DNA of 64,000 bases from Candidatus Woesearchaeota archaeon (lineage in GTDB: Archaea; Nanobdellota; Nanobdellia; Pacearchaeales; GW2011-AR1), in assembly GCA_964355135.1 (NCBI GenBank), contig CAYHCG010000008.1:423-64422 (forward strand). Direction: 5' to 3'. How positions within the stretch are numbered: the stretch's first letter is position 1; every line of letters starts with the position of its first letter. This document shows positions 7,622-63,092 of this stretch, piece by piece. Both the position numbers and the translations under genes were made by a program. Below the pieces are notes generated by a model, which had not been told where the DNA came from, ran no database searches, and saw only the letters and a list, made by a program, of their open reading frames with translations.

Positions 7622-7760
7622 ATGAAAGAAAAATTTGTTAAGATAGTAAGAAAGAATGGAGATAGCCTCGCGATCAATATCCCGAAGGAAGTGATAGATA
7701 TAATGAAGATAACTGAAGGAGATATAATCAGAGTTGAAATCGAGAAGGTTAAAGGATAAT
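7622..7760 (+). CDS. AbrB/MazE/SpoVT-type swapped-hairpin DNA-binding protein (antitoxin-like), 45 aa
   Basis: Translates MKEKFVKIVRKNGDSLAINIPKEVIDIMKITEGDIIRVEIEKVKG. Not in the ORF track because it is under 60 aa. Its stop overlaps the next gene's ATG. Confidence 0.5.
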
Positions 7761-8556
7761 GAAAAATTATGAAATCTTAAATAAATCTGACAGAAAAAGA
7801 CGGATAAAAATCCCTGAGAGACATAGTGAGCTTGCAGAGCTCCTAGGCATTTTAACAGGAGATGGTTTTATGAATTACTATCCTAAGAGACAGGCATATA
7901 TTATTGGAATTGCCGGAAACAAATTGAAAGATTTAGAATATCTAGAAAACTTTACCAGCAAATTAATTAAAAATTTATTCAATTTAAGCCCCAGATTATA
8001 TTTACATAAAAGCCAAAATACTGCAAGTTTAGTCTTTCGTTCTAAGAGCATTTTTTATTTTCTTGAAGAATGTGGTTTTCCGACTGGAAGAAAGGGAGAA
8101 ATATCAATTCCAAAATGGATCTTAGAGAATCCTGATTTCTTTAAAAAATTCATTAGAGGCGTATTTGATACAGATGGACACTTATGTTTAAAGAATAAAG
8201 AGGGTAAAAAATATCCTGTTATTGGAATAACTTCAAAAAGTAAATCTTTATTGTTTCCGATAAAAGAATTTTTAAATTCATACGGGATAACTTCTTATCT
8301 GGGGAGCCATAGGGCGGACACAAGTAATAAGAAATTTATCGTTAATAGGGTTCAGATAAGTGGTCAGAAAAATATAGGATTGTTCTTTGATCAGGTTGGG
8401 TCAAATAACCCAAGAAATTTAATGAAGTATATGGAAATGGCCCCGGGGGGAATCGAACCCTCTTACAACGAGCTTCAGTCGTTTGCATTCCCATTATGCT
8501 ACAGGGCCTCCTTGTCCTTGAAATTGAGAGAAGAGAAGACTTTTAAATGTTTTTAA
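7759..8556 (+). CDS. LAGLIDADG-family homing endonuclease (double motif). The 3' end may be read-through.
   Basis: Two motifs, LLGILTGDGFM and FIRGVFDTDGHL, both keeping the acidic residues. The last ~40 codons are antisense to a tRNA-Phe. Confidence 0.7.
   Translation: MKNYEILNKSDRKRRIKIPERHSELAELLGILTGDGFMNYYPKRQAYIIGIAGNKLKDLEYLENFTSKLIKNLFNLSPRLYLHKSQNTASLVFRSKSIFYFLEECGFPTGRKGEISIPKWILENPDFFKKFIRGVFDTDGHLCLKNKEGKKYPVIGITSKSKSLLFPIKEFLNSYGITSYLGSHRADTSNKKFIVNRVQISGQKNIGLFFDQVGSNNPRNLMKYMEMAPGGIEPSYNELQSFAFPLCYRASLSLKLREEKTFKCF
8438..8508 (-). tRNA. tRNA-Phe (GAA), no encoded CCA
   Basis: Hand-folded cloverleaf. Acceptor GGCCCTG/CGGGGCC (one G-U pair), D-stem GCAT/ATGC, anticodon stem AACGA/TCGTT, loop CTGAAGC (anticodon GAA, G37), T-loop TTCGATT. 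There is one A-C mismatch in the T-stem. A TATA-like ATTTAAAAG lies about 30 nt upstream. Confidence 0.5.
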
Positions 8557-44749: not shown

Positions 44750-44768
44750 CGTCGATCTAATAAACTTA

Positions 44769-46542: not shown

Positions 46543-46657
46543 AATTACGACAGAGAATAAGGGTTTTTAATATTTATTGTGATGTCAGCGGCGTTCGGCG
46601 CTTCGCGCCTCACACTCTAATGTGGCTATTTTATTTTAGATTTGGGACGGATTTTTA

Positions 46658-46906: not shown

Positions 46907-47043
46907 CGAGTCATATTAATAATTTAGTATAAAAATCTTTCTTTTTTATGAATTAAACGTACTTTTCTCCTTTAGAGACCCGAAAACTTCGTACAAGTAC
47001 TATTAAGCGAAGTCTTGCTCTATGAAGAAATTGATGGATTTAT

Positions 47044-47400: not shown

Positions 47401-47497
47401 AAATTTGTCAGTTATTTGTCATATTTAAACTTTTTGATTGATTAAACGAAGTTTAAGGTCATGCTGAAAGATGTTGGAGAAAGCTGAAAGATTGAGC

Positions 47498-47725
47498 TTA
47501 ATTTTCTAATTGGATATTTTTTACTTTAACGCTTTGAAGGAAGTCTTTAGGGATTTGCTTGCTTACGTCAAGGATTTCGATGCCCAAGGTTTTTCCTTCC
47601 TTGTCTAAGTCTACGTTTATATTTTTATTTAGAGAGATTGTTTCACTTACTTCTCCGGCTTTTATTTCCTTAAAGTATATGTATGCAGCATCTGCTTCTT
47701 TATCTATTTCAATTTTCATTTCCAC
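47498..47725 (-). CDS. DUF2283-family antitoxin-like protein
   Basis: MKIEIDKEADAAYIYF......GKTLGIEILDVS matches the DUF2283 pattern. Confidence 0.5.
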   Translation of the reverse strand: MEMKIEIDKEADAAYIYFKEIKAGEVSETISLNKNINVDLDKEGKTLGIEILDVSKQIPKDFLQSVKVKNIQLEN

Positions 47726-47928
47726 ATAAGAGTTATTATCTTTATATAATTATCTTTTTCCTCGTAAATTACTTTGAGAGTTTTATTTGATATTTTCTTG
47801 TAAATCTCGACTTTCCCTTCTTTCCTAACAGAATACTCTGAAAAGTCAACCGCTTCTTGAACTTGTGAAAAGGAAATATTTCTCTCTTTCATCCTCTTTT
47901 TTGCATGATCTGAAAGAATAATTTTCAT
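47716..47928 (-). CDS. DUF4258-family toxin-like protein
   Basis: MKIILSDHAKKRMKERNISFSQVQEAV. Overlaps the DUF2283 gene by 10 nt. Confidence 0.5.
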   Translation of the reverse strand: MKIILSDHAKKRMKERNISFSQVQEAVDFSEYSVRKEGKVEIYKKISNKTLKVIYEEKDNYIKIITLMWK

Positions 47929-48025
47929 GACTTAATCAGTTGAGATCTACTAATAAATTTATCGTTATCGAAGATAAAACAGCTGTTTGGACAGGTGTTT
48001 GTGTTGTTTGAGATGTTTTAAACAA

Positions 48026-48274
48026 CTAACCTAATGGAGAAAGACCGATGTATCCACCTAGAAGGCCCAAGATACCTACTAAAATAAGATAGATGCCTAC
48101 AAAGTAATTTAGAAATCTAGGCCAGACTAAGATAAGAATTCCGAAAATGATGGCTAGAACGGCTGTAATTGTAAATGTAAGTGCCATGATATATTGAAAG
48201 CTCGCAAGTATATAAATGTTACTTGTTTTGCTCAGACTGCTTATTGGCCCAAGCGGTAATAATAAGAATTGCAA
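48026..48274 (-). CDS. DUF3096-like small membrane protein
   Basis: ITAVLAIIFGILILVWPRFLNYFVGIYLILVGILGL. Confidence 0.4.
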   Translation of the reverse strand: MQFLLLPLGPISSLSKTSNIYILASFQYIMALTFTITAVLAIIFGILILVWPRFLNYFVGIYLILVGILGLLGGYIGLSPLG

Positions 48275-48518
48275 CTGCGCCGATTAATGTAACTATTAAG
48301 GCTGTGTAGAGATCTGCCAGATAGGGATGATAGAGTAGAATGCCTTTTTTGGGAACACCATCAACTATTTTTTTGATGACAGTTTGCCAGGAGAGAGCAA
48401 TGACTAAGCCAAATGCTGCAATTAATGCAGTCGTAGTTTGCTTCTTAAATTCGAGCTTTATTATTGATGCCCTATTAAGTAACTTGGTTTTCTGATTTGG
48501 AGGAGTCACTTTTTCCAT
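48219..48518 (-). CDS. small membrane protein
   Basis: Two TM segments. Confidence 0.3.
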   Translation of the reverse strand: MEKVTPPNQKTKLLNRASIIKLEFKKQTTTALIAAFGLVIALSWQTVIKKIVDGVPKKGILLYHPYLADLYTALIVTLIGAVAILIITAWANKQSEQNK

Positions 48519-48584
48519 GTTTACTTGAATATAACTTTAGATGTTTATGATAATTAAAAAAATAAAAATAAATAACTTTTGTGA

Positions 48585-48815
48585 TTATTTCTTGAATAAT
48601 CTAATTATTTCCCATATACCGGCTAGACCTACTAAGGCATAGATTATGGTGGTTACAACACCTAGATTTCCTACTACGTTTATACCCCAAATCATTAGAC
48701 CCCAATTTAGCGCGCCGATTATAACAAGAATTCTTGCTATCCAGTCGATTGCGTTCATTTGACTTATTTCACAACCTCCTTTCAACCTCTTTAGTAGAAT
48801 ACCTAAAATATGCAA
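48585..48815 (-). CDS. DUF378-like small membrane protein
   Basis: IDWIARILVIIGALNWGLMIWGINVV...IYALVGLAGIW. Confidence 0.45.
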   Translation of the reverse strand: MHILGILLKRLKGGCEISQMNAIDWIARILVIIGALNWGLMIWGINVVGNLGVVTTIIYALVGLAGIWEIIRLFKK

Positions 48816-48855
48816 ATAGAGTTTAAATATGTTTCCATTTTAGAATAGGACTAGC

Positions 48856-49218
48856 CTAGTGTTTTTTATCCATATAATAAACACCAAGGCTAAACACTCC
48901 TATGACGAGATGCACGATGGTTGTTTTAGTGTTTATATTGAGCATGTTTAATAAGAGAGTATTAATCTCAGGAATGAAACCTAATACTGCCAGAAGGAAA
49001 AAGATCCATCCTATAACCTGATTATATCTTATTCCCTCTCCCTTTGTGCCAATATAGATTCCCATCACTCCGCAGAGTATATAGAAAATGCTGAGATAGA
49101 GACTGGTGCTAAACAATCCCGAATTGCCTATGAGAGGATTATTAAAAAAATATGCGGCTCCTGCTAAAAGTAAAAAAATGCCTAAAACTAATGAAAGAGT
49201 CTTTTGTTTGTTTGCCAT
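48856..49218 (-). CDS. small membrane protein (DUF4383-like)
   Basis: Four TM segments. Confidence 0.3.
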   Translation of the reverse strand: MANKQKTLSLVLGIFLLLAGAAYFFNNPLIGNSGLFSTSLYLSIFYILCGVMGIYIGTKGEGIRYNQVIGWIFFLLAVLGFIPEINTLLLNMLNINTKTTIVHLVIGVFSLGVYYMDKKH

Positions 49219-49547
49219 TTTATTATTTTTTAGCTGAAATTTTCTATTATGATAAGCAAACAGCTGTTTAAATACATTTTTGTTTAAAGAAAAAAGACTG
49301 TGAGAAAAAAGATTAAAGACCGATGTAAAAAATTCATTAATGGAGAGATTTATTGAGGATAATTGGGGCTGTTTAAGCTGTTTAAACAGGTGTTTGTTTT
49401 AACTCTTATGGTGTTTTCCAAGCACTCCAGGTGTTTAGAAGGGTGTTTGAGCTGTTTGTTTTATAGATTGAAGGGTGTTTTTTTACGAATGGTTAATAGA
49501 GGAGAGCTAACGTAATATTTAAATAGTCAAGCTGTTTAAACAGTTTT

Positions 49548-50180
49548 ATGTTTGGATGGTTTAAGAAAAAAGAGTTAAGGGATTTGGAGAAAAAAACTCA
49601 AGAAGGGTTTGGTTCTGTTAAAAGAGATATTGATGCGGTTGGAAAGTGGATCAAACACCTTGACAAGCAAGACAAACAGCTGTTTGATTTAATAAATTTG
49701 TTAAAAAGCGATTTGTCGTATATAAGAGATGAGCTAGATAGTTTGAGAGAAGGTGTTGAAGAGATCTCAGAAGAACGAAAAGGCAAACAGCTGTTTAAGA
49801 AATTACCTGTTTTAGGCAAACAGACAGCTGTTGAGGATGTTCAAGAAGCTGTTCAAACAGCTGTCCAAACAGGTAATTTTTATGATATTTTTAAAAGATT
49901 GTCTGCTAATGAGAGGGCGGTAATTATTACGTTGATGAATAGTGAAATGAAGTTGAGTTATGAGGATTTGGCACTATTACTTGGAAAAGAGAAGTCTACA
50001 GTAAGGGGTCAGATCAATTCCATAAAACAGAAAAGTGAAGGATTGATCCTGGAGATGATCGAGAAAAATGGCAAAAAAAGGGTCTATGTACCTGAAGAAA
50101 TTAAGGAAAAAATGCAAAAATACGCAAAAGTGAGGGTTGGAAAGGGTAAAAAGAACAAGAAAAAGGATGAAAATGAGTAA
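49548..50180 (+). CDS. coiled-coil + C-terminal winged-HTH DNA-binding protein carrying KQLF repeats
   Basis: C-terminal LSANERAVIITLMNSEMKLSYEDLALLLGKEKSTVRGQINSIKQKSEGLILEMIEKNGKKRVYV. Paralog of 50609..51403. Contains 4 AAACAGCTGTTT motifs in frame. Confidence 0.45.
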   Translation: MFGWFKKKELRDLEKKTQEGFGSVKRDIDAVGKWIKHLDKQDKQLFDLINLLKSDLSYIRDELDSLREGVEEISEERKGKQLFKKLPVLGKQTAVEDVQEAVQTAVQTGNFYDIFKRLSANERAVIITLMNSEMKLSYEDLALLLGKEKSTVRGQINSIKQKSEGLILEMIEKNGKKRVYVPEEIKEKMQKYAKVRVGKGKKNKKKDENE

Positions 50181-50224
50181 AAATAGGCTCCAAAACGTAA
50201 AAGTGAGAGTTAGGAAGTGAAAAA

Positions 50225-50458
50225 ATGGCAAAAAAAGATGAAAAAAACTGGTTGAAAGGGGTAAAAGACCTCAAAAATAGAAAAGTGAGAGTTGTGGAAA
50301 GAAAAAAATTTGATAGGTTTATGGAAAAATGTAAAAAAGAGAGTGTTTTGGACAATTTTTTGACTTTTGAGATTGGACATTACAAAAGTGAGAGAAACAT
50401 CTTCATGAGTGTATCTGAACAAAACATCAAAAAGGGGGGAGTTGAGGAGGATATGTGA
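50225..50458 (+). CDS. doubtful small ORF overlapping the direct-repeat array
   Basis: 77-aa Lys-rich ORF spanning the AAAAGTGAGAGTT repeats. May not be coding. Confidence 0.15.
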   Translation: MAKKDEKNWLKGVKDLKNRKVRVVERKKFDRFMEKCKKESVLDNFLTFEIGHYKSERNIFMSVSEQNIKKGGVEEDM

Positions 50459-50608: not shown

Positions 50609-51403
<795 letters not shown>

Positions 51404-51445: not shown

Positions 51446-51718
51446 TTAAAGTTGCTTTTTGGAATAGATATTATAGACTTGTGAAGATAGACGCCATCTC
51501 TGCCTTCGCGTATATACTGTTCCCTGGGAATTCTTTTTGACTTCTACTACGAAGTTCTTTTTCTGTAAGTGGAGGAGAAGGCTTTTAGTAAATTCTTCGT
51601 CACGCGCAGTTTCCTCTGCTATTTTATTTGTAAAGGCTGCTTCAGGAGAGATCGAGAAAAGGTAATGTAAGATCTGCTCGGATATTTTGTCTTTTTTCTG
51701 TTGAGATATCTTTGGCAT
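51446..51718 (-). CDS. small hypothetical protein (possible winged-helix)
   Basis: ORF only. Confidence 0.25.
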   Translation of the reverse strand: MPKISQQKKDKISEQILHYLFSISPEAAFTNKIAEETARDEEFTKSLLLHLQKKNFVVEVKKNSQGTVYTRRQRWRLSSQVYNIYSKKQL

Positions 51719-51827: not shown

Positions 51828-54431
51828 TTGGAGAACTTAAATACAATGGCAGAGATAAAATATATTGAACCTTATGGAGAGCAAGAAACAAAGGATATGC
51901 TTAATCCCTTAGTTAGAGAATGGTTCTTTTCCAAATTTAAAGCATTCTCTAAGACTCAGCTTTATGGAGTTAAGGGCATCCATAGTAGAAGAAATATCCT
52001 AGTAAGCGCTCCTACTGGAGGAACTAAAACCTTAACTGCCTTTCTAAGCATTTTAAATTATTTAGTTGAACTGGGGCTAAAAAATGAGCTAGAGGATAAG
52101 ATATATGCTATATATTCTAGTCCCTTGAAAGCGCTAAGTAATGACATTGCAGTAAATTTGATTAATCCTTTACAAGAAATTAAAGAACTAGCTGAACAAA
52201 AAGGATTGAAATTGCAGGAAGTTAGAATTGGACTACGGACTGGAGATACGGAGACTAAAGATAGAGTAAAGATGTTGAAAAAGCCCCCCCATATTCTGGT
52301 GACTACTCCTGAAACGTTGGCTATTGTATTGACTAGTGGAAAGTTTGTTGAACATATGAAAAGACTAGAGTTTGTGATTGTGGACGAGATTCACGCCATG
52401 ACTAGTAAGAGAGGAGTTTACATGTCTTTGACTCTGGAGAGATTGCATGAAGTAAGCGTTATCGAACCTGTAAGAATTGGATTAAGCGCGACTATATCTC
52501 CACTGGATGAAATTGCAAAGTTTTTAGTTGGGGGGGAGAGGGACTGCGATATAGCAGATGTGAAACTTGATAAGCGGATTGAGATCGACTTAGATTTTCC
52601 CGGCAAAGATATTATGGAATCAGAAATGCCTGATAATCAGAAAGAATTGTATAGGATGTTAGATGAGATTATCCAAAAGTATCGAACGACCTTGATTTTT
52701 ACTAATACTAGAAATGCAACGGAGAGAATTGTGCATTATTTAGAGGAGCATTATCCTGGAAACTATGCAGGCTTGATTGGAGCGCATCATAGTTCTATGA
52801 GTAAAGACAAGAGATTTGAGATTGAAGATAGATTAAGAAAGGGAGAACTCAAAGTTGTGGTCACTTCGACTAGTTTGGAACTTGGGATTGATATAGGGAG
52901 TATTGATTTTGTTGTTTTACTTCGGTCTCCTAAGAGCGTTGCAAGAGCAATGCAGAGAATTGGAAGAGCGGGACATAAACTCCATGAGAACCCAAGGGGT
53001 ACATTCATTGTTTTGGAAAGAGATGATTTGGTTGAGTGTGGTGTTTTAATGAAAGAGATGATTGAGGGAAAAATTGACAGGACAGAGATTCCCAAAAATC
53101 CTTTAGACGTTTTGGCGCAACAAATCTATGGGATGGCTATTTCTAAAGTATGGGATATTGATGATATGTTAAGAGTTATACGAAGAAGTTATTGCTATAG
53201 TGAACTAAGCAAGGAGGACTTTTTATCTGTTGTTAGTTATTTGGCAGGAGATTATGCCTTAGAACATAGACATGTATATGCAAAGATCTGGTACGACACT
53301 CAGACTAAGCAAATAGGAAAACGTGGTAAACTTGCAAGAGTGATTTATATGACTAACTTAGGAACTATTCCGAGCGAGAGCTTCATTAAAGTATCTATAC
53401 GCACTCCTGCATCCAGGCAAGGAGAAACTGTTGGAAAGATTGATGAAGGTTTTTTAGAAAGGATGAAGCGGGGAGATGTGTTTGTACTAGGCGGACAGAA
53501 ATATCAGTATTTGTATTCGAAAGGTATGACTGCTTTTGTGGGCGCGGATGTAACAAAGAGTCCCACTATCCCGAGTTGGTTTTCAGAAATGCTGCCTTTG
53601 AGCTTTGATGTTGCCTTAGATATTGGAAAATTCAGAAAACTCGTTAGTGAGAGAGTTAAAAATAAGAAAGAGTGCTTGGCTTTTATTAAAGAGTACTTGT
53701 ACTGTAAAGATAAAATCGCAGAAGTGATTTATGAGTACTTCAGAGAGCAGGATGCGTATGCAGAGATCCCACATTCTGAGAAGATTGTTGTTGAAAAATT
53801 CAAAGAAAACAAGGAATATCTTGTTTTTCATACTCTTTATGGGAGGAGAGTTAATGATGCTCTATCCAGAGCGTATGCTTTTGCAGCTGGTCGGGTACGA
53901 GGTAGGGATGTAGAAATTGGGATTAATGATAATGGGTTTTTTATTGCTGGAGATAGTCTGGATGAAGAGAAGATCATAAAGTGGGTTAAGAGTAAAGATT
54001 TGAAAGCTATCTTAAAAGAAGCTGTTGAGAAGACTGATGTATTAAGAAGAAGGTTTAGACATTGCGCGGGCAGGTCACTGATGATACTGCGCAACTATAA
54101 AGGCATAGAGAAGTCTGCTGGTAAGCAGCAGATCCATTCTGAATTTTTGTTTACTGCTGTGAAGAAGATAAGTAATGAATTCCCAATACTGCGGGAAGCA
54201 AGAAGAGAAGTGATGGAGGATTTGATGGATGTAAAGAGTGCGGAGAAGGTACTAAACTGGATTGAAGAAGGGAAAATAAAGATAAAGGTTGTGAGACGGC
54301 CATTGATTTCTCCTTTTGGAGTTAATTTGGTTATTCAGGGAAGAAGCGACTTGATAAAAATGGAAGACAAGGTTAAATTCTTAAAGAGAATGCATGAATT
54401 ACATAAGAAAGTTATTGAAGAAAAAGCTTAA
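51828..54431 (+). CDS. Lhr-type (Lhr-core) ATP-dependent DEAD/DEAH-box helicase
   Basis: Motif I SAPTGGTKT, motif II VIVDEIHA, motif VI QRIGRAGH, with a C-terminal Lhr WH/DUF1998-like extension. 867 aa. Confidence 0.8.
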   Translation: MENLNTMAEIKYIEPYGEQETKDMLNPLVREWFFSKFKAFSKTQLYGVKGIHSRRNILVSAPTGGTKTLTAFLSILNYLVELGLKNELEDKIYAIYSSPLKALSNDIAVNLINPLQEIKELAEQKGLKLQEVRIGLRTGDTETKDRVKMLKKPPHILVTTPETLAIVLTSGKFVEHMKRLEFVIVDEIHAMTSKRGVYMSLTLERLHEVSVIEPVRIGLSATISPLDEIAKFLVGGERDCDIADVKLDKRIEIDLDFPGKDIMESEMPDNQKELYRMLDEIIQKYRTTLIFTNTRNATERIVHYLEEHYPGNYAGLIGAHHSSMSKDKRFEIEDRLRKGELKVVVTSTSLELGIDIGSIDFVVLLRSPKSVARAMQRIGRAGHKLHENPRGTFIVLERDDLVECGVLMKEMIEGKIDRTEIPKNPLDVLAQQIYGMAISKVWDIDDMLRVIRRSYCYSELSKEDFLSVVSYLAGDYALEHRHVYAKIWYDTQTKQIGKRGKLARVIYMTNLGTIPSESFIKVSIRTPASRQGETVGKIDEGFLERMKRGDVFVLGGQKYQYLYSKGMTAFVGADVTKSPTIPSWFSEMLPLSFDVALDIGKFRKLVSERVKNKKECLAFIKEYLYCKDKIAEVIYEYFREQDAYAEIPHSEKIVVEKFKENKEYLVFHTLYGRRVNDALSRAYAFAAGRVRGRDVEIGINDNGFFIAGDSLDEEKIIKWVKSKDLKAILKEAVEKTDVLRRRFRHCAGRSLMILRNYKGIEKSAGKQQIHSEFLFTAVKKISNEFPILREARREVMEDLMDVKSAEKVLNWIEEGKIKIKVVRRPLISPFGVNLVIQGRSDLIKMEDKVKFLKRMHELHKKVIEEKA

Positions 54432-54750
54432 AAAAGACTCTTGGAGCTTATTTGATATGGACGAAAACTATAAGGTAAGAATGAAAAACCAGGGCAGCAT
54501 AGGACGTTTGAGAGAAGATATTGCTTCGGTTGTGACTGGAGGGGTAGTTGGTTTGGGGATGGGCGCTTTAGGGAGGGCAGTAGGTATGAACCTAGATAGA
54601 GAAACCATATTAGTGTATGCAGGATTTGTAAGTGGGGCCTATTATTTTACACTAGATAGAAAAGATGTAAAAAAGAATTATTTTCTTGAGAGTTTAATTA
54701 CTGGGACTAGTTTTGCGATAGGGTTAACATTTAACAGACTAGTTTTTTGA
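54394..54750 (+). CDS. hypothetical small protein
   Basis: ORF with a Gly-rich hydrophobic segment. Confidence 0.25.
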   Translation: MNYIRKLLKKKLKKDSWSLFDMDENYKVRMKNQGSIGRLREDIASVVTGGVVGLGMGALGRAVGMNLDRETILVYAGFVSGAYYFTLDRKDVKKNYFLESLITGTSFAIGLTFNRLVF

Positions 54751-54778
54751 TTGGGGAGGCTTGAATAGGAAGACTTAA

Positions 54779-55552
54779 ATGGGGAAGTATTTTTCTGTAA
54801 GGATGTTAGAAGATGAAAACATACAGTTTGTTGGAAAATGTTTGTATATTGAAGAACATAAGCAGAAGATTTTGGTAATTGGAGATCTGCATTTAGGATA
54901 TGAAGAAGTATTGAATAGGGGAGGAGTTTTCATTTCTAGAGCGATGTTTAAGGAAATGATTGCGTATTTTGAAAGAGTTTTCGAACGTGTGGGGAAGGTG
55001 AATAAGATTGTTTTATTGGGAGATGTTAAACATGCTTTTGGAAATATTATGGAACAGGAGTGGGATGATGTGCTGCGGTTGTTTGATTACTTAAAGAAAA
55101 AGCTCTTAGAAAATGGGAAGATAATAATTGTGAAGGGAAATCATGACCGGATACTAGAACCTATTGCGAAACTGCGAAATATGGTTGAACTCAAACCGTA
55201 TTTTATTTTTCACGAGTTCTTTTTTATGCATGGAGATAAAGATTTCTTTGAGAACTATGAAAAGAAAATAAAATATTGGATTATTGGACACGGTCATCCC
55301 GCTATAACTATAAGAGACCCTGAAGGCATAAAGGCGGAAAAATATAAGTGCTTTTTAACAGGGCATTATAAGAAAAAGAGAATTATAGAAGCAATTCTTG
55401 TACCCTCCTTCTTTGCTTATACTGAAGGTAGTGATCCAAGAGAGAATGATTTAGGATTTCCTTGGAAATTTGACTTTGAGAGATTTTTTGTACATGTGGT
55501 AGGAGACAGTCTAGATGTACTTGATTTTGGAAGGCTAGGAAAGTTAAAGTAG
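54779..55552 (+). CDS. calcineurin-like metallophosphoesterase (Lhr-associated MPE-like)
   Basis: VIGDLHLG, LLGDVKH, GNHD, IIGHGH phosphoesterase motifs. Confidence 0.6.
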   Translation: MGKYFSVRMLEDENIQFVGKCLYIEEHKQKILVIGDLHLGYEEVLNRGGVFISRAMFKEMIAYFERVFERVGKVNKIVLLGDVKHAFGNIMEQEWDDVLRLFDYLKKKLLENGKIIIVKGNHDRILEPIAKLRNMVELKPYFIFHEFFFMHGDKDFFENYEKKIKYWIIGHGHPAITIRDPEGIKAEKYKCFLTGHYKKKRIIEAILVPSFFAYTEGSDPRENDLGFPWKFDFERFFVHVVGDSLDVLDFGRLGKLK

Positions 55553-56916: not shown

Positions 56917-58128
56917 ATGGATAAACTTGATCAGATTTTCGATTCTTTTGCAGCAACCAGCTTATTCAAGAATAAAAGTGTGCTGCAGTCAAATTATGCC
57001 CCCGATAGTATTTTACACAGAACTGAACAAATAGAGTCAATCGCTTCTATTTTGGGTCCAACTCTGCGGGGAGACAAGGCCAGTAATCTATTTCTTTATG
57101 GGAAAACCGGCAGCGGCAAGACCTTAAGCATGCAACATGTAGGAAATAAATTAGAAAGCAGAACAAAAGAGCTCAATGGCAATAAAATCAAGTTTTTATA
57201 TATAAATTGTAAATTAAGGAAAGTTTCTGATACAGAATATAGAATCATCGCAGAATTAATAAAAGCCCTGGGGGAAAAAATACCTGCTACAGGACTTCCT
57301 ACCGATGCAGTTTATTCAAAATTTGTTGAAATTATAGATAATGAAAAACAAGTTGTTGTCCTAGTACTAGACGAAATAGATCAGGCCGTTAAGAAAATAT
57401 CTGATAATTTTATTTACACATTAACAAGGATGAATTCAGAACTAAAAAATGCTCAAATAAGTCTAGTTGGGATAAGTAATAGTTTGACATTCATGGATAA
57501 CTTGGATCCTCGAGTCAGAAGCTCTCTAGGAGAAGAGGAAATTGTTTTTCCACCTTATAATGCATTGCAATTAAGAGATATATTAAAGAAAAGGGCAGAA
57601 TCCGCATTCAATGAGGACTGTCTGGGAGAGGGAGTTATTGAAAAATGTGCGGCTTATGCTGCAAGAGAGCATGGGGATGCAAGAAGAGCTTTAGATTTAC
57701 TAAGGGTTGCGGGGGAGATAGCGGTTAGAGAAGGAAGCAAGAAAGTGTTACTTAAGCATATTGATGTTTCAAATGAGAAAATCGAAAGAGATAAAATGCT
57801 CGATGTTATTGAAAGCGAACCTGCACAGTTCCAACTTGTTTTATACGCAATAATGAATTTAAGTGATGAAGGCAAGGGCATTAAAAATATATTTACTGGA
57901 GATGTTTTCAATGTTTATCAGGAACTTTGCGAGAAAACCAAGAGCGAAGTTTTAACCCAGCGGAGAGTCTCGGATATTATCGCAGAGTTTGACATGTTAG
58001 GAATAATAAATGCAAGGGTGATAAGCAAGGGGAGACAGGGAAGGACCAGAGAAATAAAATTGATGCTATCTAAAAACATAAAAGAGAAAGCAAAAGAGAT
58101 CTTAGAGAAAGCTTTAGATATAAAATGA
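56917..58128 (+). CDS. orc1: Orc1/Cdc6 replication initiator
   Basis: Walker A LFLYGKTGSGKT, Walker B VLVLDEID, C-terminal winged helix. Confidence 0.9.
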   Translation: MDKLDQIFDSFAATSLFKNKSVLQSNYAPDSILHRTEQIESIASILGPTLRGDKASNLFLYGKTGSGKTLSMQHVGNKLESRTKELNGNKIKFLYINCKLRKVSDTEYRIIAELIKALGEKIPATGLPTDAVYSKFVEIIDNEKQVVVLVLDEIDQAVKKISDNFIYTLTRMNSELKNAQISLVGISNSLTFMDNLDPRVRSSLGEEEIVFPPYNALQLRDILKKRAESAFNEDCLGEGVIEKCAAYAAREHGDARRALDLLRVAGEIAVREGSKKVLLKHIDVSNEKIERDKMLDVIESEPAQFQLVLYAIMNLSDEGKGIKNIFTGDVFNVYQELCEKTKSEVLTQRRVSDIIAEFDMLGIINARVISKGRQGRTREIKLMLSKNIKEKAKEILEKALDIK

Positions 58129-58131: not shown

Positions 58132-59676
58132 ATGGACAACGAAATTTTGAATCTGATAAGAGAAAGAGGATTATTACTAGAGAAGGAAATATTCGATTTA
58201 GTTAATCAGATTAAGGATGTAACTATCGCTAAGAACTTCTTAGAACAAATTGAGAGATTATCTGGAAAAAAACTCATAACTCGGAACGTTCTTGGAAGCA
58301 ACATGGAATATGTGAAAAGCTTTATGGGTACTTTAGGAGACAATAGCTATGTTGAGAGAGTTTTTGTGAATCTTGGTATAAGTCTTGAAGTAAGAAGAGA
58401 AGTACTCAAGGAAGAAAACAGAAAGCAGGAATATAAGATCCTGTATGCGAATACGACGGTTGACAAAAAGATTGAAGTAAAAGACTTTGTGGGTCATTTT
58501 AGGTCGCGCTTTGCGCAATTACAAAGAATTCTTATGTCACGGCCGGAACTTCAAAATAATTTGATTTCTATAAACAAAATACAATCCGAAAGAGCTAATT
58601 TAAGCATTATAGGAATTGTGAAAGAAAAAAGAATAACAAAAAATAAAAACATGATCTTGAGGCTTGAGGATTTAACTGGAGAGATAGGGGCCTTAGTTAA
58701 ATTTGATAGGGGAGAAGTATTTGAGAAAGCTGACGAATTATTATTAGACGATGTAATAGGGGTCAAGGCATCTGGAAATAAAGATCTCTTGTTTGTGCAG
58801 GATATATTTTATCCTGATTCAATGATATTTGAGAAAACTAGGTTTGAAAATGAAGATTGCATAGCCTTTCTTTCTGATTTACATTGTGGCAGCGATAGAC
58901 ACTTAAAAAAGAGCCTAGCGAGATTTTTGGAGTGGATTAATTCAGATGACGAAACTGCAAAGAAAATAAAATATATCTTTTTTGTAGGAGATAATGTAGA
59001 TGGGGTGGGAATTTTTCCAGGGCAGGAAGAAGTTTTAGAAATGAAAAGCATGAAACAACAGTATCAACTATTAAGCCATTATTTAAGACAAATTCCCAAG
59101 CATATTACCATGTTTATGTGTCCGGGACAGCACGATGCGGTAAGAGTTGCTGAACCTCAACCTGTTATAAGTAGAAGATATGCTCCTGAATTATACGAAA
59201 TTGAAAATTTAAATTTAGTGAGTAACCCTAGTCTTGTGAAGTTAATAGAAGGAGACAAAGAGTTTAAGGTACTAATGTATCATGGAGCAAGCATTCACAG
59301 TTTTATTAATGAAATTAAGACGTTAAGACTTATGAAAGCACACAGATGTCCTGCAAAAGCGGTTGAACAAATGCTCAAAAGAAGACATTTGGCTCCAACA
59401 CATAGCGAAGTGGTCTATATTCCAAATGCAGAGATCGATCCTTTAGTTATTAACGAAGTTCCAGATATTTTATGCACTGGTGAAGTTCACAGATTGGACA
59501 TTTCTACTTACAACGGCATCTTAATTATGACTGGCAGTTGCTGGCAGGCACAAACTCCTTTTGAAGAGAAGGTTGGGAATATTCCCGATCCTGCAAAAGT
59601 ACCTGTTTTTAATATGAAAACAAGGGAGCTAAAGATTTTTGATTTTAGCGCCACGGAGGAACTGAAAAAAAGATGA
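58132..59676 (+). CDS. DNA polymerase II (PolD) small subunit DP1
   Basis: Calcineurin-like phosphoesterase (Mre11-like) core with an OB domain. Gene order orc1-DP1-DP2 as in Pyrococcus. Confidence 0.85.
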   Translation: MDNEILNLIRERGLLLEKEIFDLVNQIKDVTIAKNFLEQIERLSGKKLITRNVLGSNMEYVKSFMGTLGDNSYVERVFVNLGISLEVRREVLKEENRKQEYKILYANTTVDKKIEVKDFVGHFRSRFAQLQRILMSRPELQNNLISINKIQSERANLSIIGIVKEKRITKNKNMILRLEDLTGEIGALVKFDRGEVFEKADELLLDDVIGVKASGNKDLLFVQDIFYPDSMIFEKTRFENEDCIAFLSDLHCGSDRHLKKSLARFLEWINSDDETAKKIKYIFFVGDNVDGVGIFPGQEEVLEMKSMKQQYQLLSHYLRQIPKHITMFMCPGQHDAVRVAEPQPVISRRYAPELYEIENLNLVSNPSLVKLIEGDKEFKVLMYHGASIHSFINEIKTLRLMKAHRCPAKAVEQMLKRRHLAPTHSEVVYIPNAEIDPLVINEVPDILCTGEVHRLDISTYNGILIMTGSCWQAQTPFEEKVGNIPDPAKVPVFNMKTRELKIFDFSATEELKKR

Positions 59677-62600
59677 ACATACAAGCTTATTTCAATGAAA
59701 TTGATGAAAAAGTAAAGCATGCTTACGCTATTGCAAATAAAGCGAGAGCTTTGGGACTCGATCCTGCAGATACCGTAGAAACCCCTATTGCAACAACCCT
59801 AGCTGAAAAGACTATAGGATTAATCTCTGTCGTTTATCCACAATTAAATAACAAAGAAGTTATAGAGAGAATTTTAGAGCTGGAAAAAGAATACGGACAA
59901 CTTGATACTACAGTTGCATTTAAGATTGCAGAGGAAGTCGCAAAAGAGAAATTCTGCAAATTTAAGGACTTAATGGAATCTATGGATGCGGGAATAAGGG
60001 TAGGTTTTGCCTATATTACTTTGGGTGTTGTTTCAAGTCCTATTGAAGGATTTACGGGACTTAGGGTGGGGAAGACTAGAGAAGGTAAAGATTACTTGAT
60101 GGCTTATTTTTCAGGCCCCATAAGAAGCGCTGGAACTACTGCTTCGTGTGTAGTGTTAATGCTGATTGATTATTTACGAGAGACTTTTGGATTTGCAAAA
60201 TTTGATCCAGACGAGAATGAAGTTAAAAGATATGTTACTGAAAATTATGATTATCATGAAAGAGTAAACAATTTGCAATATTTACCCACTGAAGAAGAAA
60301 TTGCATTCCTAGCAAAGAATTTGCCTATCCAGATTAATGGAGAGGCGAGTGAAGATCGAGAAGTTTCCAATTATAAAGATCTGGCAAGGGTAGAAACTAA
60401 TTTTATTCGCGGAGGGATGTGCCTTATTTTTTCAGAAGGATTAGCTCAAAAGGCGCAGAAAGGACTTAGACTTTTGAAGGGAGTAAAAGAGAAAGGATTA
60501 AAATCTAGCGGATGGGACTTTCTGGATGAGTATATTGTATTGCACAAGAAGAGAGAAAAAGGAAGCGCGGATACAAGTCCCACATACATAAAAGATATTG
60601 TTGCAGGCAGACCTGTTTTTGGACATCCTTCAAGATCGGGAGGATTCAGGTTTAGATATGGGAGAAGCAGAACGGGCGGATTTTCTGCAACTGCTATAAG
60701 CCCTTTAACTATGGGCATATCGAATCAATTCTTATCTTCTGGAAATCAATTAAAAATAGAAAAACCTACGAAGGGATGCGCAATAACAGTATGTGATTCT
60801 ATAGATGGCCCGGTTGTAAAACTAAAAGACGGAACGGTAAAGAGAATGAAAACTTTTGAAGAGACAAAAAAGCTTTACAAAGATGTTGAAGAGATTTTAT
60901 ATTTGGGAGACTTGCTGTTTTCATTAGACGATGTAATTAATAGGAATTATGAGTTACTAAAATCAGGATATGTTGAAGAGTGGTGGGACTTGGAATTAAA
61001 GAAAGCGGCAGGAGAAGATAATCCGGACACAAAACTAGATAGTTTTAATGTGGTTTTTGAAAAGGCAGTAGAACTTAGTGAAAAATATAAAATACCTCTG
61101 CATCCTTCTTTTATTTATTATTGGACGCAAATAGATTATGATGGATTTTTGGCATTAATTGATTGGACCGCACATGGAGATCTCAGAGAAGGCAAGCTTG
61201 TCCTGCCTTATACTAAAGTTGATAGAGAACGATTTGCGAAAGGCAAGAGGACTATGGAATTAATTGCATGTGAGCATTTAGTTGGGATAGAGAATGTCAT
61301 TTTAGAAGAAAAAGATACAAAACCTTTTTTACTTAATCTAGGATTTGATGTTGAAAATCTAACTATGGAGAGTTTTGAGGCAAAATTAGATGAGCTTTCT
61401 TTAGTAGTGAAGGAGAAAGGAAACGTATTAGAAATTATAAATAAACTTTCCAAGTATAAAATTAAAGATAAGGCAGGAACATTCATTGGAACGAGGATGG
61501 GTCGACCAGAAAAAGCGAAACTGAGGAAGCTTACTGGCAGTCCGCATGTTTTATTTCCTGTAGGAAATGAAGGAGGAAGATTAAGGAGTTTTCAGGCAGC
61601 CTGCGATATAGGAAATGTGACTAGCGAATTTGCTAATTACTATTGTAATACTTGCAAGGGCGATAAGATTTATAGAAAATGTGAAACTTGCAGAGCAGAT
61701 TGCGAACTCAAAGAAGAAGAGCAAGGGTTTGGCAAAAGAGGGAAAAGAATAGATATTAAAGAGTATTTTGAAAGCGCAAAAAAACTCTTGGGAGTGAGGG
61801 GAGAAGAACTGCCTGTTGTGAAGGGAGTTAGGGGAATGTCAAATAAAGATCACAGCATAGAGCCCTTGGCGAAAGGGATATTGCGGGCAAAGCATAACTT
61901 GAATGTAAACAAGGACGGGACTATCAGATACGATATGACTGAAATGGCTTTCACTCATTTTAAGCCTGGAGAAATTGGAACGAGCCCAGAGAAATTAAGG
62001 GGGCTTGGATACGAAAAAGATATTGAAGGAAATCTACTCGAGCGTGATGACCAAATCTTAGAATTATTACCTCATGATATTATCTTGCCGTCATGTCCTG
62101 AGACTCTAGATGAAAGAGCAGATGACGTTTTTTTAAGAATATGTAAATTTATTGATGACGAACTAGAGAAATTGTATAAATTAGATAAGTTTTACAATGC
62201 CAATACGAAAGAAGATATCATAGGCCACTATGTTGTTTGTATTGCACCTCATATTTGCACTGCAACTGTGGGGAGAATCATAGGGTTTTCAAAGATACAG
62301 GCTTTACTAGCAAGTCCGTTCATGCATGCAGCGATGAGAAGAGACTGTGATGGTGATGAAGCTGCAGTAATGTTGCTTATGGACTTACTGCTCAACTTCT
62401 CGAAGAAATTTTTGCCAGCTCATAGGGGGGGAACTCAAGATGCGCCTCTAGTATTGAATACACATATTAGCGCGGGAGAAGTTGATGACCAAATCCTTGA
62501 CTTTATCATGGGAGCATACCCTTTAGAACTTTATGAACTAGCAGAGCAAGGCAAACATTCTTCCGAATTAAAAGTAGACAACGTAAAAAAGAGGTTGAAA

Positions 62601-63092
62601 GATGGAAAGGACACATTTACCGGGATAAAATTTACTCACGGTTGCTCTGATTTCAATGCGGGAGTTGTGAATTCTTCCTATAAGCTTTTGCCTACAATGC
62701 ATGAAAAAGTAAGCGCGCAGATGGATTTATGTAAAAAAATACGGGCAGTGGATGTCGAAGATGTTGCTCGATTGATCATTGAGAGACACTTCATAAGAGA
62801 TACTAGGGGTAATTTGAGAAAGTTTTCAATGCAGGTTTTTAGATGTGTGGGCTGTAATGAGAAATATAGGAGGCCTCCTTTGATTGGCAAGTGCGGCAAG
62901 TGCGGAGGGAGATTGATATTTACGATTTCAGAAGGAAGTATTCTCAAATATATGCAGCCGGCACTAGATTTAGCGAGAACTTACAATTCTAGCCCATATC
63001 TATTGGAATCACTAGAACTTACTGAAATGTATATTCATAGTATATTTGGCAAAGAGAAAGAGAAACAAGAAGGACTTGGGAAGTGGTTTTAA
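59673..63092 (+). CDS. DNA polymerase II (PolD) large subunit DP2
   Basis: 1139 aa. C-terminal Zn-binding CVGCNEKYRRPPLIGKCGKCGG. No intein. Overlaps DP1 (ATGA). Confidence 0.9.
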   Translation: MNIQAYFNEIDEKVKHAYAIANKARALGLDPADTVETPIATTLAEKTIGLISVVYPQLNNKEVIERILELEKEYGQLDTTVAFKIAEEVAKEKFCKFKDLMESMDAGIRVGFAYITLGVVSSPIEGFTGLRVGKTREGKDYLMAYFSGPIRSAGTTASCVVLMLIDYLRETFGFAKFDPDENEVKRYVTENYDYHERVNNLQYLPTEEEIAFLAKNLPIQINGEASEDREVSNYKDLARVETNFIRGGMCLIFSEGLAQKAQKGLRLLKGVKEKGLKSSGWDFLDEYIVLHKKREKGSADTSPTYIKDIVAGRPVFGHPSRSGGFRFRYGRSRTGGFSATAISPLTMGISNQFLSSGNQLKIEKPTKGCAITVCDSIDGPVVKLKDGTVKRMKTFEETKKLYKDVEEILYLGDLLFSLDDVINRNYELLKSGYVEEWWDLELKKAAGEDNPDTKLDSFNVVFEKAVELSEKYKIPLHPSFIYYWTQIDYDGFLALIDWTAHGDLREGKLVLPYTKVDRERFAKGKRTMELIACEHLVGIENVILEEKDTKPFLLNLGFDVENLTMESFEAKLDELSLVVKEKGNVLEIINKLSKYKIKDKAGTFIGTRMGRPEKAKLRKLTGSPHVLFPVGNEGGRLRSFQAACDIGNVTSEFANYYCNTCKGDKIYRKCETCRADCELKEEEQGFGKRGKRIDIKEYFESAKKLLGVRGEELPVVKGVRGMSNKDHSIEPLAKGILRAKHNLNVNKDGTIRYDMTEMAFTHFKPGEIGTSPEKLRGLGYEKDIEGNLLERDDQILELLPHDIILPSCPETLDERADDVFLRICKFIDDELEKLYKLDKFYNANTKEDIIGHYVVCIAPHICTATVGRIIGFSKIQALLASPFMHAAMRRDCDGDEAAVMLLMDLLLNFSKKFLPAHRGGTQDAPLVLNTHISAGEVDDQILDFIMGAYPLELYELAEQGKHSSELKVDNVKKRLKDGKDTFTGIKFTHGCSDFNAGVVNSSYKLLPTMHEKVSAQMDLCKKIRAVDVEDVARLIIERHFIRDTRGNLRKFSMQVFRCVGCNEKYRRPPLIGKCGKCGGRLIFTISEGSILKYMQPALDLARTYNSSPYLLESLELTEMYIHSIFGKEKEKQEGLGKWF

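Follow-up and report, generated by a model that had tools for sequence, protein, structure and literature searches.

A candidate autoregulatory operator array within and upstream of the gene for a predicted coiled-coil/winged-helix protein in Woesearchaeota

INTRODUCTION

Intragenic or downstream auxiliary operators are known from Escherichia coli, where they occur for PurR in the transcribed or coding region of its own gene, for lac as O2 in lacZ, and for gal as OI in galE. These operators cooperate with sites at the promoter, several of them by DNA looping, and PurR controls its own gene in this manner. In Bacillus subtilis, a parS site resides inside spo0J (parB), close to the replication origin. 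Arrays of 7-11-bp direct or inverted units surround the promoters of the plasmid-borne ribbon-helix-helix proteins omega of pSM19035 and ParR (parC), which bind them cooperatively, and these arrays lie outside coding sequence. Regulators of the MarR, Lrs14 (AbfR2) and ArsR-SmtB types are dimers that bind palindromes and often regulate their own expression. The binding sites of lambda O are located in the part of its gene that encodes the region between the two protein domains. Lambda O is a dimeric DNA-binding protein whose adjacent dimers form a DNA-wrapping complex on these repeated sites in its own gene (PMC3985674).

In the current study, we describe a locus from a Candidatus Woesearchaeota archaeon, found in a stretch of 64 kb (hereafter ‘the window’), in which copies of a short DNA motif lie both upstream of and within the gene for a 210-amino-acid protein with a predicted winged helix-turn-helix (wHTH) domain. 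We propose, with a probability of roughly 0.55, that this motif family serves as DNA-level operators of this one gene, which most probably are bound by its own coiled-coil/wHTH product to bring about negative autoregulation. The closest analogues are lambda O/ori-lambda and intragenic operators. A literature search found nothing relevant on the 210-amino-acid protein or on the motif in DPANN archaea.

The locus shares features with each of the systems named above. As in lambda O/ori-lambda, repeated sites are present within the coding sequence of a DNA-binding protein, in its inter-domain part. However, the gene resides on a cellular DPANN chromosome rather than in a phage, it carries a second array and a promoter-proximal site upstream, and the array is not the origin, because a canonical Orc1/Cdc6 origin is present 7 kb away. 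The candidate operators lie within coding sequence like those of PurR, lac and gal, but those systems have one intragenic site, whereas approximately nine half-sites over 220 bp are found here. This array also is conserved over an order-level clade, visibly shapes the protein sequence, and accompanies an archaeal TATA promoter that is probably leaderless. The embedding of a candidate site in a DNA-binding protein’s own gene near an origin resembles parS in spo0J, although an array takes the place of a single 16-bp site, the protein has no ParB fold or CTPase, and no ParA partner is encoded nearby. The predicted structure of residues 111-196 has the wHTH fold of MarR, Lrs14 and ArsR proteins, but the protein scores above no family HMM threshold (Pfam, NCBIfam or PDB profile), its dimerization would use a 70-residue N-terminal helix, and it contains a conserved repeat linker. 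Omega and ParR likewise have arrays of short direct and inverted units around a regulator’s promoter; in contrast, the present protein is of the wHTH type, its gene is chromosomal, and the array also extends into coding sequence. Finally, protein-binding DNA in coding sequence biases codon and residue choice in ‘duons’, where the effect is weak and statistical, whereas here it is near-absolute, local, and found in the regulator’s own gene.

RESULTS AND DISCUSSION

A half-site motif concentrated at one locus

Motif analysis of the window defined the repeating unit as a 7-bp half-site, G[C/G]TGTTT, which can be paired as AAACA[G/C][C/G]TGTTT or as GCTGTTTAAACAG. The palindrome AAACAGCTGTTT is present in four exact copies per 64 kb (at 47977, 49258, 49674 and 49785), whereas no exact copy arose in 100 dinucleotide shuffles. 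Allowing at most one mismatch, AACAGCTGTT was observed nine times versus 2.5 expected, and all nine matches fall within 41708-49865. When a cluster is defined as at least two copies of G[C/G]TGTTT within at most 40 bp, a scan of the window yields clusters at 41700-41726, 47977-48000, 49258-49269, 49368-49480, 49653-49685 and 49785-49796, compared with 0.15 clusters expected in shuffled sequence. The cluster at 49368-49480 is composed of eight half-sites, all eight of which are on the plus strand. In total, region 49258-49545 carries ten half-sites, and codons 36-109 of the gene carry approximately nine more. A further pair at 6368 probably occurs by chance.

An earlier note on this DNA had proposed that a palindrome family is clustered around the wHTH gene and is nearly absent elsewhere, and had called for a count against expectation. 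The excess over shuffled sequence makes the clustering real, and stronger than was claimed, and the clusters are confined to 41.7, 48.0 and 49.3-49.9 kb apart from the chance-like pair. The copies that had been placed at two gene boundaries were seen as mini-arrays at 41700-41732 and 47977-48000, and no comparable arrays were found in the window beyond these and the 49.3-49.9 kb locus. An extended 14-mer form, GCTGTTTAAACAGC, has no exact match; instead, two copies of the 13-mer GCTGTTTAAACAG are present, at 49377 and 49531.

The distal mini-array (P1, GCTGTTTGGACAGCTGTTTAAAACAGCCGTTT, 41700-41732) is situated in a 38-bp gap between the ends of two convergent genes (41383-41697, plus strand, and 41736-42473, minus strand), a location that runs counter to a promoter role. 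The mini-array at 47977 is contained in a second upstream module, TATCG..GATAAAACAGCTGTTTGGACAGGTGTTTGTGTTGTTTGAGATGTTTTAAACA (47960-48025), between the 3ʹ end of a run of genes for small membrane proteins and the start of gene 47716-47928 (minus strand), and comparable P2+P1 modules reside 0.8-1.4 kb upstream in other species. The second palindrome, P2 (TTATCG[A/T]CGATAA), is real in many orthologues, both upstream and at codons 56-59, and is degenerate in the window. The GC skew of the window tracks gene orientation and is uninformative.

The orthologues come from uncultivated archaea, their loci are taken from metagenome-assembled genomes (MAGs), and counts are given per species-level locus (73-75). 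In a metagenome scan for GTGTTTNNACAGSTGTTT, 20 of the 22 matches with at least five half-sites carried the gene for the 210-amino-acid protein, and in one further such match a contig end truncated the homologous upstream region. The remaining 90-odd matches comprised isolated chance occurrences in unrelated contigs, most of them richer in GC, together with an unrelated 12-bp microsatellite in locus L099. A regulon-wide motif was considered and rejected, given that arrays were seen at this gene only. The scan pattern represents the composite form of the motif, and therefore isolated single operators elsewhere would escape it. A dispersed mobile repeat of the REP or MITE kind was likewise rejected, as was the related suggestion of a highly iterated palindrome, since the copies are confined to one locus and their positions are fixed in 73-75 species.

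The upstream array and the promoter

The upstream array (49366-49480, plus strand) was delimited by the window scan and by comparison with orthologous arrays, and includes GCTGTTTAAACAGGTGTTT. Its eight half-sites start at 49368, 49377, 49389, 49410, 49430, 49442, 49451 and 49474. Farther upstream, a perfect AAACAGCTGTTT palindrome (49258-49269) is located 40 bp upstream of the start of the divergent DUF4383 gene. A TATA box, TTTAAATA (49519-49526, plus strand), lies 22-29 nt before the ATG, and the promoter profile of 75 loci shows T at -29 in 98%, T at -28 in 99% and A at -33 in 96%. The distance between TATA box and ATG implies a leaderless transcript. Between TATA box and start codon lies the palindrome GCTGTTTAAACAG (49531-49543), in a repressor position that overlaps the core promoter region between the TATA box and the predicted transcription start site. 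Of 75 loci, 31 have a half-site at this location (-17/-16), and in one locus (L001) the promoter-proximal site has undergone a symmetric double change to GGTGTTTAAACACC.

Comparison of orthologous loci, which the earlier note had suggested as a check, revealed the array at -200 to -100 in 73 species-level loci from Woesearchaeota and Pacearchaeota MAGs, where the half-site is enriched approximately 100-fold and is strand-biased. In this interval, G[C/G]TGTTT occurs 253 times on the plus strand versus 46 times on the minus strand, relative to a background of 0.014 per 50 bp per strand. At least three upstream half-sites are found in 71 of 74 loci (median six), and the distance from array to ATG is constant while the intergenic length spans 285 to 1000 bp. 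Spacings between half-sites peak at 10, 21, 31-32 and 42-44 bp, which places the sites on one helix face; an additional peak occurs at 12 bp. Because the array is 5ʹ of a conserved TATA box and at a fixed distance from the ATG, it is outside the mRNA of this gene.

An intragenic array that constrains codon choice

Additional sites reside within the gene itself (49548-50180, plus strand). AAACACC (K-H-L) is followed 21 nt on by AAACAGCTGTTT (K-Q-L-F) at codons 36-46 (49653-49685), and AAACAGCTGTTT (K-Q-L-F) recurs together with CCTGTTT (P-V-L) at codons 80-89 (49785-49812). In most species, the site at codons 80-83 is AAACAGGTGTTT, which encodes K-Q-V-F. A linker array at codons 91-109 (49818-49874) begins with AAACAGACAGCTGTT (49818-49832, K-Q-T-A-V) and ends with GCTGTTCAAACAGCTGTCCAAACAGGT (49848-49874, A-V-Q-T-A-V-Q-T-G). 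From a half-site at codon 87, others follow at codons 94, 101 and 105 at intervals of 21, 21 and 12 nt, and the nucleotide profile of the linker array is 99-100% conserved among orthologues. Four intragenic copies encoding K-Q-L-F had been reported previously; two of these stand (49674 and 49785), whereas the other two correspond to the K-Q-T-A-V and A-V-Q-T-A-V-Q-T-G segments of the linker array. Half-sites at 49653 (AAACACC), 49806 (CCTGTTT) and 49867 (AAACAGG) had gone unreported.

Codon choice at the motif is highly specific. H37 is encoded by CAC in 92% of cases versus a background of 28%, L45 by CTG in 51 of 56 (91%, versus 8%), V82 by GTG in 40 of 40 (versus 15%), P87 by CCT in 91%, and A101 and A105 by GCT in 100% (versus 35%). 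Among glutamine codons, Q44 and Q81 are always CAG (65/65 and 63/63), and Q103 and Q107 are CAA without exception. The motif positions use codons that neighbouring genes seldom employ (CTG 8%, GTG 15%, TCG 9%), and the mean codon-usage divergence is 0.95 bits for 28 motif codons versus 0.32 for 134 others (Mann-Whitney P = 1.3e-9). Among orthologues, variation at motif codons affects the first and second positions, and the third positions are invariant; for example, codons 101 and 105 have T at the third position in 100% of cases, even though the residue can be A, G, P, V, T or S. Residue exchanges match the degeneracy of the motif (L/V as CTG/GTG, Q/H as CAG/CAC, and A/G/P as GCT/GGT/CCT), and therefore amino-acid variation tracks the variation that the DNA motif permits. 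The motif, strictly conserved in 75 species, thus seems to prescribe some of the residues of the protein.

These patterns support the proposal that a candidate operator doubles as a codon block, and generalize it to more than 70 species with nucleotide-level constraint in the coding sequence. In 75 orthologues, which share 50-84% identity, the intragenic copies are found in frame at the same codons. This constancy indicates that they are ancient parts of the gene rather than insertions, and it contradicts repeated invasion of the ORF by a recombination site. An overlapping or antisense gene was considered as the cause of the synonymous constraint and was rejected, because the five alternative frames over +90 to +340 contain stop codons in 74-75 of 75 species.

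The encoded protein and its neighbours

An architecture of coiled coil plus wHTH, as had been noted from the sequence, was seen in an AF2 model and in Foldseek matches. The model comprises a helix at residues 4-75, a low-confidence linker at 75-109 and a wHTH domain at 111-196 (H-H-H plus a two-strand wing, pLDDT 77-88), and the protein ends in a basic tail. Values of pLDDT are below 50 over the linker array region. Residues 111-196 match MarR-, AbfR2- and ArsR-type wHTH structures (MepR, AbfR2, SmtB and CadC) with E-values of 4e-4 to 5e-3 and TM scores of about 0.5 on the target. The presumed recognition helix, STIRGQINxIKQK, is nearly invariant among orthologues, and the long N-terminal helix of the model would be suited to dimerization. 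Profile searches with the protein produced sub-threshold matches only: DUF3489 in Pfam (17 bits versus a cut-off of 29.5), sigma70 region 4 and Sta1 far under cut-off in NCBIfam, an Lrs14-like PDB profile (E = 0.44), and HTH matches in PHROGs.

A divergent run of small membrane-protein genes (48026-49218, minus strand; 82 aa, DUF5654, DUF378 and DUF4383 by Pfam) is bracketed by two P1 modules. The same families adjoin orthologues of the gene, and these neighbours are possibly co-regulated. Two other conserved neighbours, within 2 kb of the gene, encode alternative candidate binders of the motif, namely a distant paralogue with coiled coil, repeat linker and HTH (50609-51403, minus strand) and a 90-amino-acid putative wHTH protein (51446-51718, minus strand). 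TrmB, encoded elsewhere in the window, is a further candidate of the HTH type. The linker of the paralogue has xxQT repeats as well as TDRQ repeats encoded by (GACA)n. We considered whether the same operator principle applies to the paralogue and rejected this, as repeats are present in its coding sequence only and none are found in its promoter. A repeat linker alone is therefore no proof of operators.

A proposed autoregulatory mechanism

In the mechanism that we favour, a dimeric coiled-coil/wHTH protein, most probably the gene’s own product, would recognize G[C/G]TGTTT in three settings: phased direct repeats 90-200 bp upstream, the palindrome between TATA box and start codon, and the array in the first half of the coding sequence. 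With both arrays and the promoter-proximal site occupied, the promoter would be shut through occlusion, looping or wrapping. The result would be negative autoregulation, perhaps with control of the divergent small membrane-protein genes as well. Retention of the intragenic sites would fix codon choice, such that the sequence of the unstructured linker (KQ[L/V]F, KQTAV, VQT[A/G/P]VQT) would be largely dictated by them. A self-recognition site was among the explanations offered in the earlier note, and we regard it as the most probable of these. From sequence patterns, we infer that the sites are bound by protein, that the binder is the 210-amino-acid protein, and that the effect is repression. 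Autoregulation is favoured because arrays are present at this gene only, which is the usual signature of such control. As counterpoints, the promoter-proximal half-site is missing in 44 of 75 species, and the main array, at -90 to -200, lies farther upstream than is usual for simple repression in archaea.

Alternative explanations

The sites might instead be operators bound by another regulator, such as the paralogue, the 90-amino-acid wHTH protein or a global factor, with the gene serving only as a target. Two further HTH proteins are indeed conserved directly downstream, and across the most distant orthologues, changes in recognition-helix residues were not cleanly matched by changes in the half-site. 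However, arrays occur at this gene only, the presumed recognition helix of its product varies as little as the TGTTT core does, and the HTH and linker of the paralogue are far more variable, which makes a different binder unlikely. A comparably improbable reading holds that the array is an origin-proximal, chromosome-organizing or centromere-like site, with a large nucleoprotein complex extending over -200 to +330. Its main task would be to segregate or organize the oriC region, and autoregulation would be a by-product, as for parS in spo0J/parB. A canonical oriC lies 6.5-7 kb from the gene, not only in the window but also for two orthologues that share 65-71% identity; each genome has one private array; extra sites occur within 8 kb on the same side (all P1 clusters of the window are 7-15 kb from oriC, on one side); one site lies at convergent gene ends rather than at a promoter; and the protein combines a long coiled coil with a basic tail. 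Nevertheless, no ATPase of the ParA/SegA type was found among the genes called in the 10 kb to each side, and the protein has no ParB-like or ribbon-helix-helix centromere-binding fold. A role in transcription control is indicated by the constant arrangement of the sites with respect to TATA box and ATG and by the site at the repressor position, and gene order around oriC may have been conserved simply through inheritance. In a bolder and still more doubtful version, the array from -200 to +330 would nucleate a novel origin-proximal, centromere-like chromosome organizer of Woesearchaeota and Pacearchaeota, wherein the protein would coat and bridge its own gene beside oriC and the linker would be a ‘passenger’ peptide translated from the sites. 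That the array could itself be an origin, with iterons inside an initiator gene, is suggested by the phased, iteron-like repeats upstream and in the linker-coding part of a gene for a DNA-binding protein, a layout that is the same as in lambda (PMC3985674). This reading is largely refuted by a canonical archaeal oriC at 56.4-56.8 kb, 7 kb away, where inverted ORB elements (CTCCAGTGGAAAT plus G-string) flank a very AT-rich stretch that spans about 290 bp in the window. This oriC is directly upstream of orc1/cdc6-polD in all three genomes examined (the window, L211 and L212), and the 210-amino-acid protein has no helicase loader or AAA+ domain.

Two other readings do not invoke DNA-binding sites within the gene. 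Intragenic conservation might act in RNA, through hairpins, pairing between palindromes, or a site for an RNA-binding protein that affects translation or stability. Although RNA elements also would be expected to show synonymous constraint, and the palindromes could form short hairpins such as GCUGU-UCAA-ACAGC, these stems would have just 4-5 AU-rich pairs. Potential stem bases do not covary (33 observed versus 31.9 expected, P = 0.42; and 17 versus 17.5), the commonest combination at sites 1 and 2 (CTG/GTG) creates a G-G mismatch, and Rfam returned no match at E up to 1 across 41-52 kb. Moreover, the main array is 5ʹ of the conserved TATA box and has 10.5-bp phasing, and we regard an RNA-level role as very unlikely. 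The remaining possibility is that the DNA has no function within the gene, such that the pattern reflects a conserved repeat peptide with codon bias, or invasion by a mobile palindrome or recombination element. The peptide motifs are highly conserved and an xxQT repeat linker is found in the paralogue as well, but this explanation is contradicted by position-specific codon choice that is opposite among glutamine codons (CAG at 44 and 81 versus CAA at 103 and 107), by the use of rare codons (CTG, GTG and TCG), by third positions that are conserved above first and second positions, by fixed in-frame copies in 75 species, and by the lack of dispersed copies elsewhere.

Implications

The locus offers a concrete candidate regulator-operator pair for the DPANN Woesearchaeota and Pacearchaeota, and the first testable regulator in these lineages. 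It would represent an extreme case in which selection at the DNA level overrides selection at the protein level, and in which the underlying DNA accounts for the conservation of a protein segment that is apparently disordered. Embedded binding sites of this kind can mislead both the inference of peptide motifs from conservation and dN/dS analyses, and caution is therefore warranted. If the 210-amino-acid protein does bind these sites, then the locus would provide a natural model for the co-evolution of an operator array with a coding sequence, and it may also bear on origin-proximal chromosome organization in very small genomes.

The wHTH gene and its product

The ORF at 49548..50180 encodes a 210-aa protein for which the earlier note proposed a coiled coil plus wHTH architecture. 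The AF2 model agrees with this view, predicting a single long helix (residues 4-75), a low-confidence linker (75-109, pLDDT <50) and a wHTH domain (111-196, pLDDT 77-88). Foldseek matched the protein to MarR/MepR, archaeal Lrs14-type AbfR2 and ArsR/SmtB domains. However, no Pfam family scored above threshold, and profile comparisons against PDB, NCBIfam and PHROGs returned HTH matches only, all sub-threshold. Thus, although the fold resembles that of MarR/Lrs14 proteins, every family-profile test failed, and we do not file the protein under these families. There are 2210 homologues, the best 120 of which are 63-100% identical and derive from Nanoarchaeota, Pacearchaeota and Woesearchaeota metagenome bins; the identical protein is present in Hainich groundwater assemblies. 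The peptides DKQLFD, NKQ[V/L]FKK, KQTAV and VQTAVQT are invariant or almost invariant among orthologues.

Half-site arrays upstream of and within the gene

A palindrome family had been described around and inside the wHTH gene, and the sequence of the window matches that description. Across the 64 kb there are four exact copies of AAACAGCTGTTT (at 47977, 49258, 49674 and 49785), whereas 100 dinucleotide-preserving shuffles produced none. Allowing one mismatch, the 10-mer core has nine copies versus 2.5 expected, all of them within 41708-49865. A longer 14-mer, GCTGTTTAAACAGC, is absent in its exact form, but its 13-mer is present twice. Of the four intragenic copies said to encode K-Q-L-F, only two do, whereas the others encode K-Q-T-A-V and A-V-Q-T-A-V-Q-T-G.

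Counts of shorter words reveal a half-site of 7 bp, G[C/G]TGTTT, as the true unit, and it pairs either tail-to-tail (AAACAG-CTGTTT) or head-to-head (GCTGTTT-AAACAG). Ten copies lie on the same strand between 49258 and 49545. Cluster analysis of the window located groups at 41700, 47977, 49258, 49368-49480 (eight plus-strand copies), 49653-49685 and 49785; the only group elsewhere is a pair at 6368 that is probably due to chance. Shuffled sequence yields 0.15 clusters.

Gene order is kept across seven loci found by exact protein look-up and 80 species-representative genomes: small membrane-protein genes on the minus strand (DUF5654/DUF378/DUF4383), a long intergenic region (285-1000 bp), the wHTH gene, a small ORF, a distant paralogue with a coiled coil, repeat linker and HTH (BLASTP E = 0.027), a 90-110-aa protein, and an Lhr helicase with a metallophosphoesterase. 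Rows of G[C/G]TGTT(T) precede the gene in all of the first seven loci. The comparison of copy number among orthologous loci that the earlier note proposed yields at least three upstream half-sites in 71 of 74. Between -200 and -100, relative to the ATG, 73 loci carry 253 half-sites on the plus strand and 46 on the minus strand, with a background of 0.014 per 50 bp per strand. The distance from array to ATG is constant despite the variable intergenic length, and successive half-sites are helically phased, with spacings of 10, 12, 21, 31-32 and 42-44 bp. Several species carry extra small modules 0.5-2 kb upstream, among the small membrane-protein genes, as does the window at 47960-48025. In one compared locus (L003), an rve-family integrase (IS element) has inserted at 2439-3290, in the long stretch that precedes the array, leaving array and promoter intact.

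A metagenome scan with the composite pattern GTGTTTNNACAGSTGTTT returned 120 contigs, 27 of which carry the wHTH gene, with the match 100-240 bp upstream or about +240 to +330 in the coding sequence. Five or more neighbouring half-sites accompany 22 matches: 20 lie at the wHTH gene, one (L184) belongs to the homologous upstream region where a contig end truncates it, and one (L099) is an unrelated microsatellite. The remaining matches are isolated chance ones, and therefore the arrays are private to this locus. The L099 repeat, a tandem 12-bp unit (CAGGTGTTTTCA)n at the end (5827-5887) of a contig of 41% GC, matched the search pattern and has no link to the wHTH gene.

The core promoter is strongly conserved: positions -29..-22 read TTWAWATA, and 96% of loci have A at -33. 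Because it keeps a fixed distance from the ATG, the transcript is probably leaderless. A half-site overlies -17/-16 in 31 of 75 loci; the window is one of them, with GCTGTTTAAACAG at 49531-49543, and a symmetric variant, GGTGTTTAAACACC, is found in the compared locus L001. Directly 5' of the TATA box (-47..-31), most orthologues (e.g. L010-L040) conserve GGCCTTAAAANCGCAAG, which may be an extended BRE or the site of another factor; the window matches it poorly (49498-49518).

Selection on DNA within the coding sequence

Codons in 75 aligned orthologues were compared with usage in 74 neighbouring ORFs. Choice is fixed precisely at motif positions: K43 is AAA (67/67), Q44 CAG (65/65), L45 CTG (51/56; background 8%), F46 TTT (63/63), Q81 CAG (63/63; 39%), V82 GTG (40/40; 15%), H37 CAC (92%; 28%), A101 and A105 GCT (100%; 35%), Q103 and Q107 CAA (74/74 and 75/75; 61%) and T108 ACA (74/74; 45%). 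Thus, one residue, glutamine, is locked to position-specific codons. Mean divergence from background is 0.95 bits at 28 motif codons versus 0.32 at 134 others (Mann-Whitney P = 1.3e-9), and is 0.32 bits for wHTH domain codons.

Residue variation tracks the degenerate positions of the DNA motif ACA[G/C][G/C]TGT, with L/V as CTG/GTG, Q/H as CAG/CAC and A/G/P as GCT/GGT/CCT. Codons 101 and 105 end in T in 100% of species, whereas their first two bases are only 71-80% conserved, an inversion of the usual coding constraint. From codon 87 to 94, 101 and 105, the intragenic half-sites follow one another at 21, 21 and 12 nt, exactly those intergenic spacings divisible by three, and the intergenic GCTGTTTAAACAG becomes in-frame GCTGTTCAAACAG, avoiding a TAA stop. 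The intragenic array explains the high conservation of the linker, which ranks with the best-conserved parts of the protein despite its predicted disorder; the linker sequence is largely a translation of putative operator repeats. It is very improbable that peptide conservation alone, or invasion by an element, accounts for this. Neither the alternative frames nor the antisense strand contain an ORF that stays open across species, and an overlapping gene was rejected.

Other repeats and neighbouring genes

In 22 of 73 loci a second palindrome, TTATCG[A/T]CGATAA, directly adjoins the 5' side of the upstream array (-178..-193). It is also present within the coding sequence, where codons 56-59 encode L-S-[S/T]-I via rare TCG/ACG codons (S57 is TCG in 92% versus 9% background). 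Both copies are degenerate in the window (49247-49257 and 49713-49725). A third repeat, AAAGTGAG[A/G]GTT, is restricted to the plus strand (50127-50138, 50200-50211 and 50282-50293), and in orthologous loci lies at the 3' end of the wHTH gene and in the 150 bp that follow. The C-terminal K-V-R-V is encoded by one copy (V195 GTG 72/72; background 15%), and one to three more lie just downstream, partly within the small ORF. Restriction to one strand may reflect an RNA-level or directional signal.

The paralogue (50609..51403, minus strand) contains T-D-R-Q peptide repeats encoded by a (GACA)n tetranucleotide at about 51109-51290. Across 70 species, DRQT is GACAGACAGACA in 75 of 85 cases, and NQQT and NKQT are (RACA)n variants. 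Such repeats are confined to the paralogue coding sequence, its promoter lacking them, and could be prone to out-of-frame slippage. The Lhr-type helicase (DEAD, Helicase_C, WH_Lhr, DEAD_assoc) at 51828..55552 is followed by the metallophosphoesterase, and this pair adjoins the wHTH cluster in all loci examined. Elsewhere in the window, an ORF with a LAGLIDADG_3 domain (7759..8553, plus strand) overlaps the opposite-strand tRNA-Phe (8438..8508).

Possible functions of the arrays

Genes for Orc1/Cdc6 (56917..58125), PolD DP1 (58132..59673) and PolD DP2 (59673..63089) lie nearby. Directly upstream of orc1/cdc6, the region 56410-56790 is a canonical archaeal oriC: an ORB-like element CTCCAGTGGAAATGCTGGTGTGGGTG (CTCCAGTGGAAAT plus G-string; 56763-56788) and an inverted one with a C-string (about 56415-56443) border ~290 bp of very AT-rich sequence. 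Two orthologous loci (65-71% identity) share this layout (L211, 16.4-17.0 kb; L212, 16.7-17.1 kb). Since a separate oriC lies 6.5-7 kb from the wHTH gene in all three, an origin embedded in the array is highly unlikely. The array is nevertheless consistently origin-proximal in these loci, and a centromere-like organising role is a minor possibility. An 86-aa PRC-barrel protein adjoins oriC in L211 (16107-16367) and L212 (16263-16523), and an unannotated ORF occupies the equivalent place in the window (about 56058-56312, minus strand).

Helical phasing, placement 5' of the TATA box, a palindrome at a repressor position and privacy to one gene together indicate that the motif copies are probably protein-binding DNA sites. 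Action at the RNA level is given little credence: an Rfam search over 41-52 kb yielded no match, bases that would pair in a hairpin show no covariation (33 observed versus 31.9 expected), and an RNA duplex between the two K-Q-x-F sites, in their commonest combination, would contain a mismatch. A neighbouring regulator could bind the sites, though we consider this rather doubtful. The most likely binder is the gene's own product, given the privacy of the arrays, their palindromic symmetry, a coiled coil suited to dimers and an invariant presumed recognition helix. Negative autoregulation is the most likely function, and would be mediated by the two arrays on either side of the promoter.

In function, the closest analogues are autoregulated repressors that use auxiliary operators inside genes, with PurR, lac O2 and gal OI as examples. 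A further analogue is parS, which sits inside spo0J near oriC. Lambda O/ori-lambda has a comparable layout, with repeated binding sites inside the initiator's own coding sequence; the initiator binds four iterons there and wraps the DNA (PMC3985674). Compared with these systems and with MarR/Lrs14 proteins, the wHTH locus differs in the number of its intragenic sites, in their conservation throughout the clade, and in that its DNA motif is visibly imprinted on the protein sequence.
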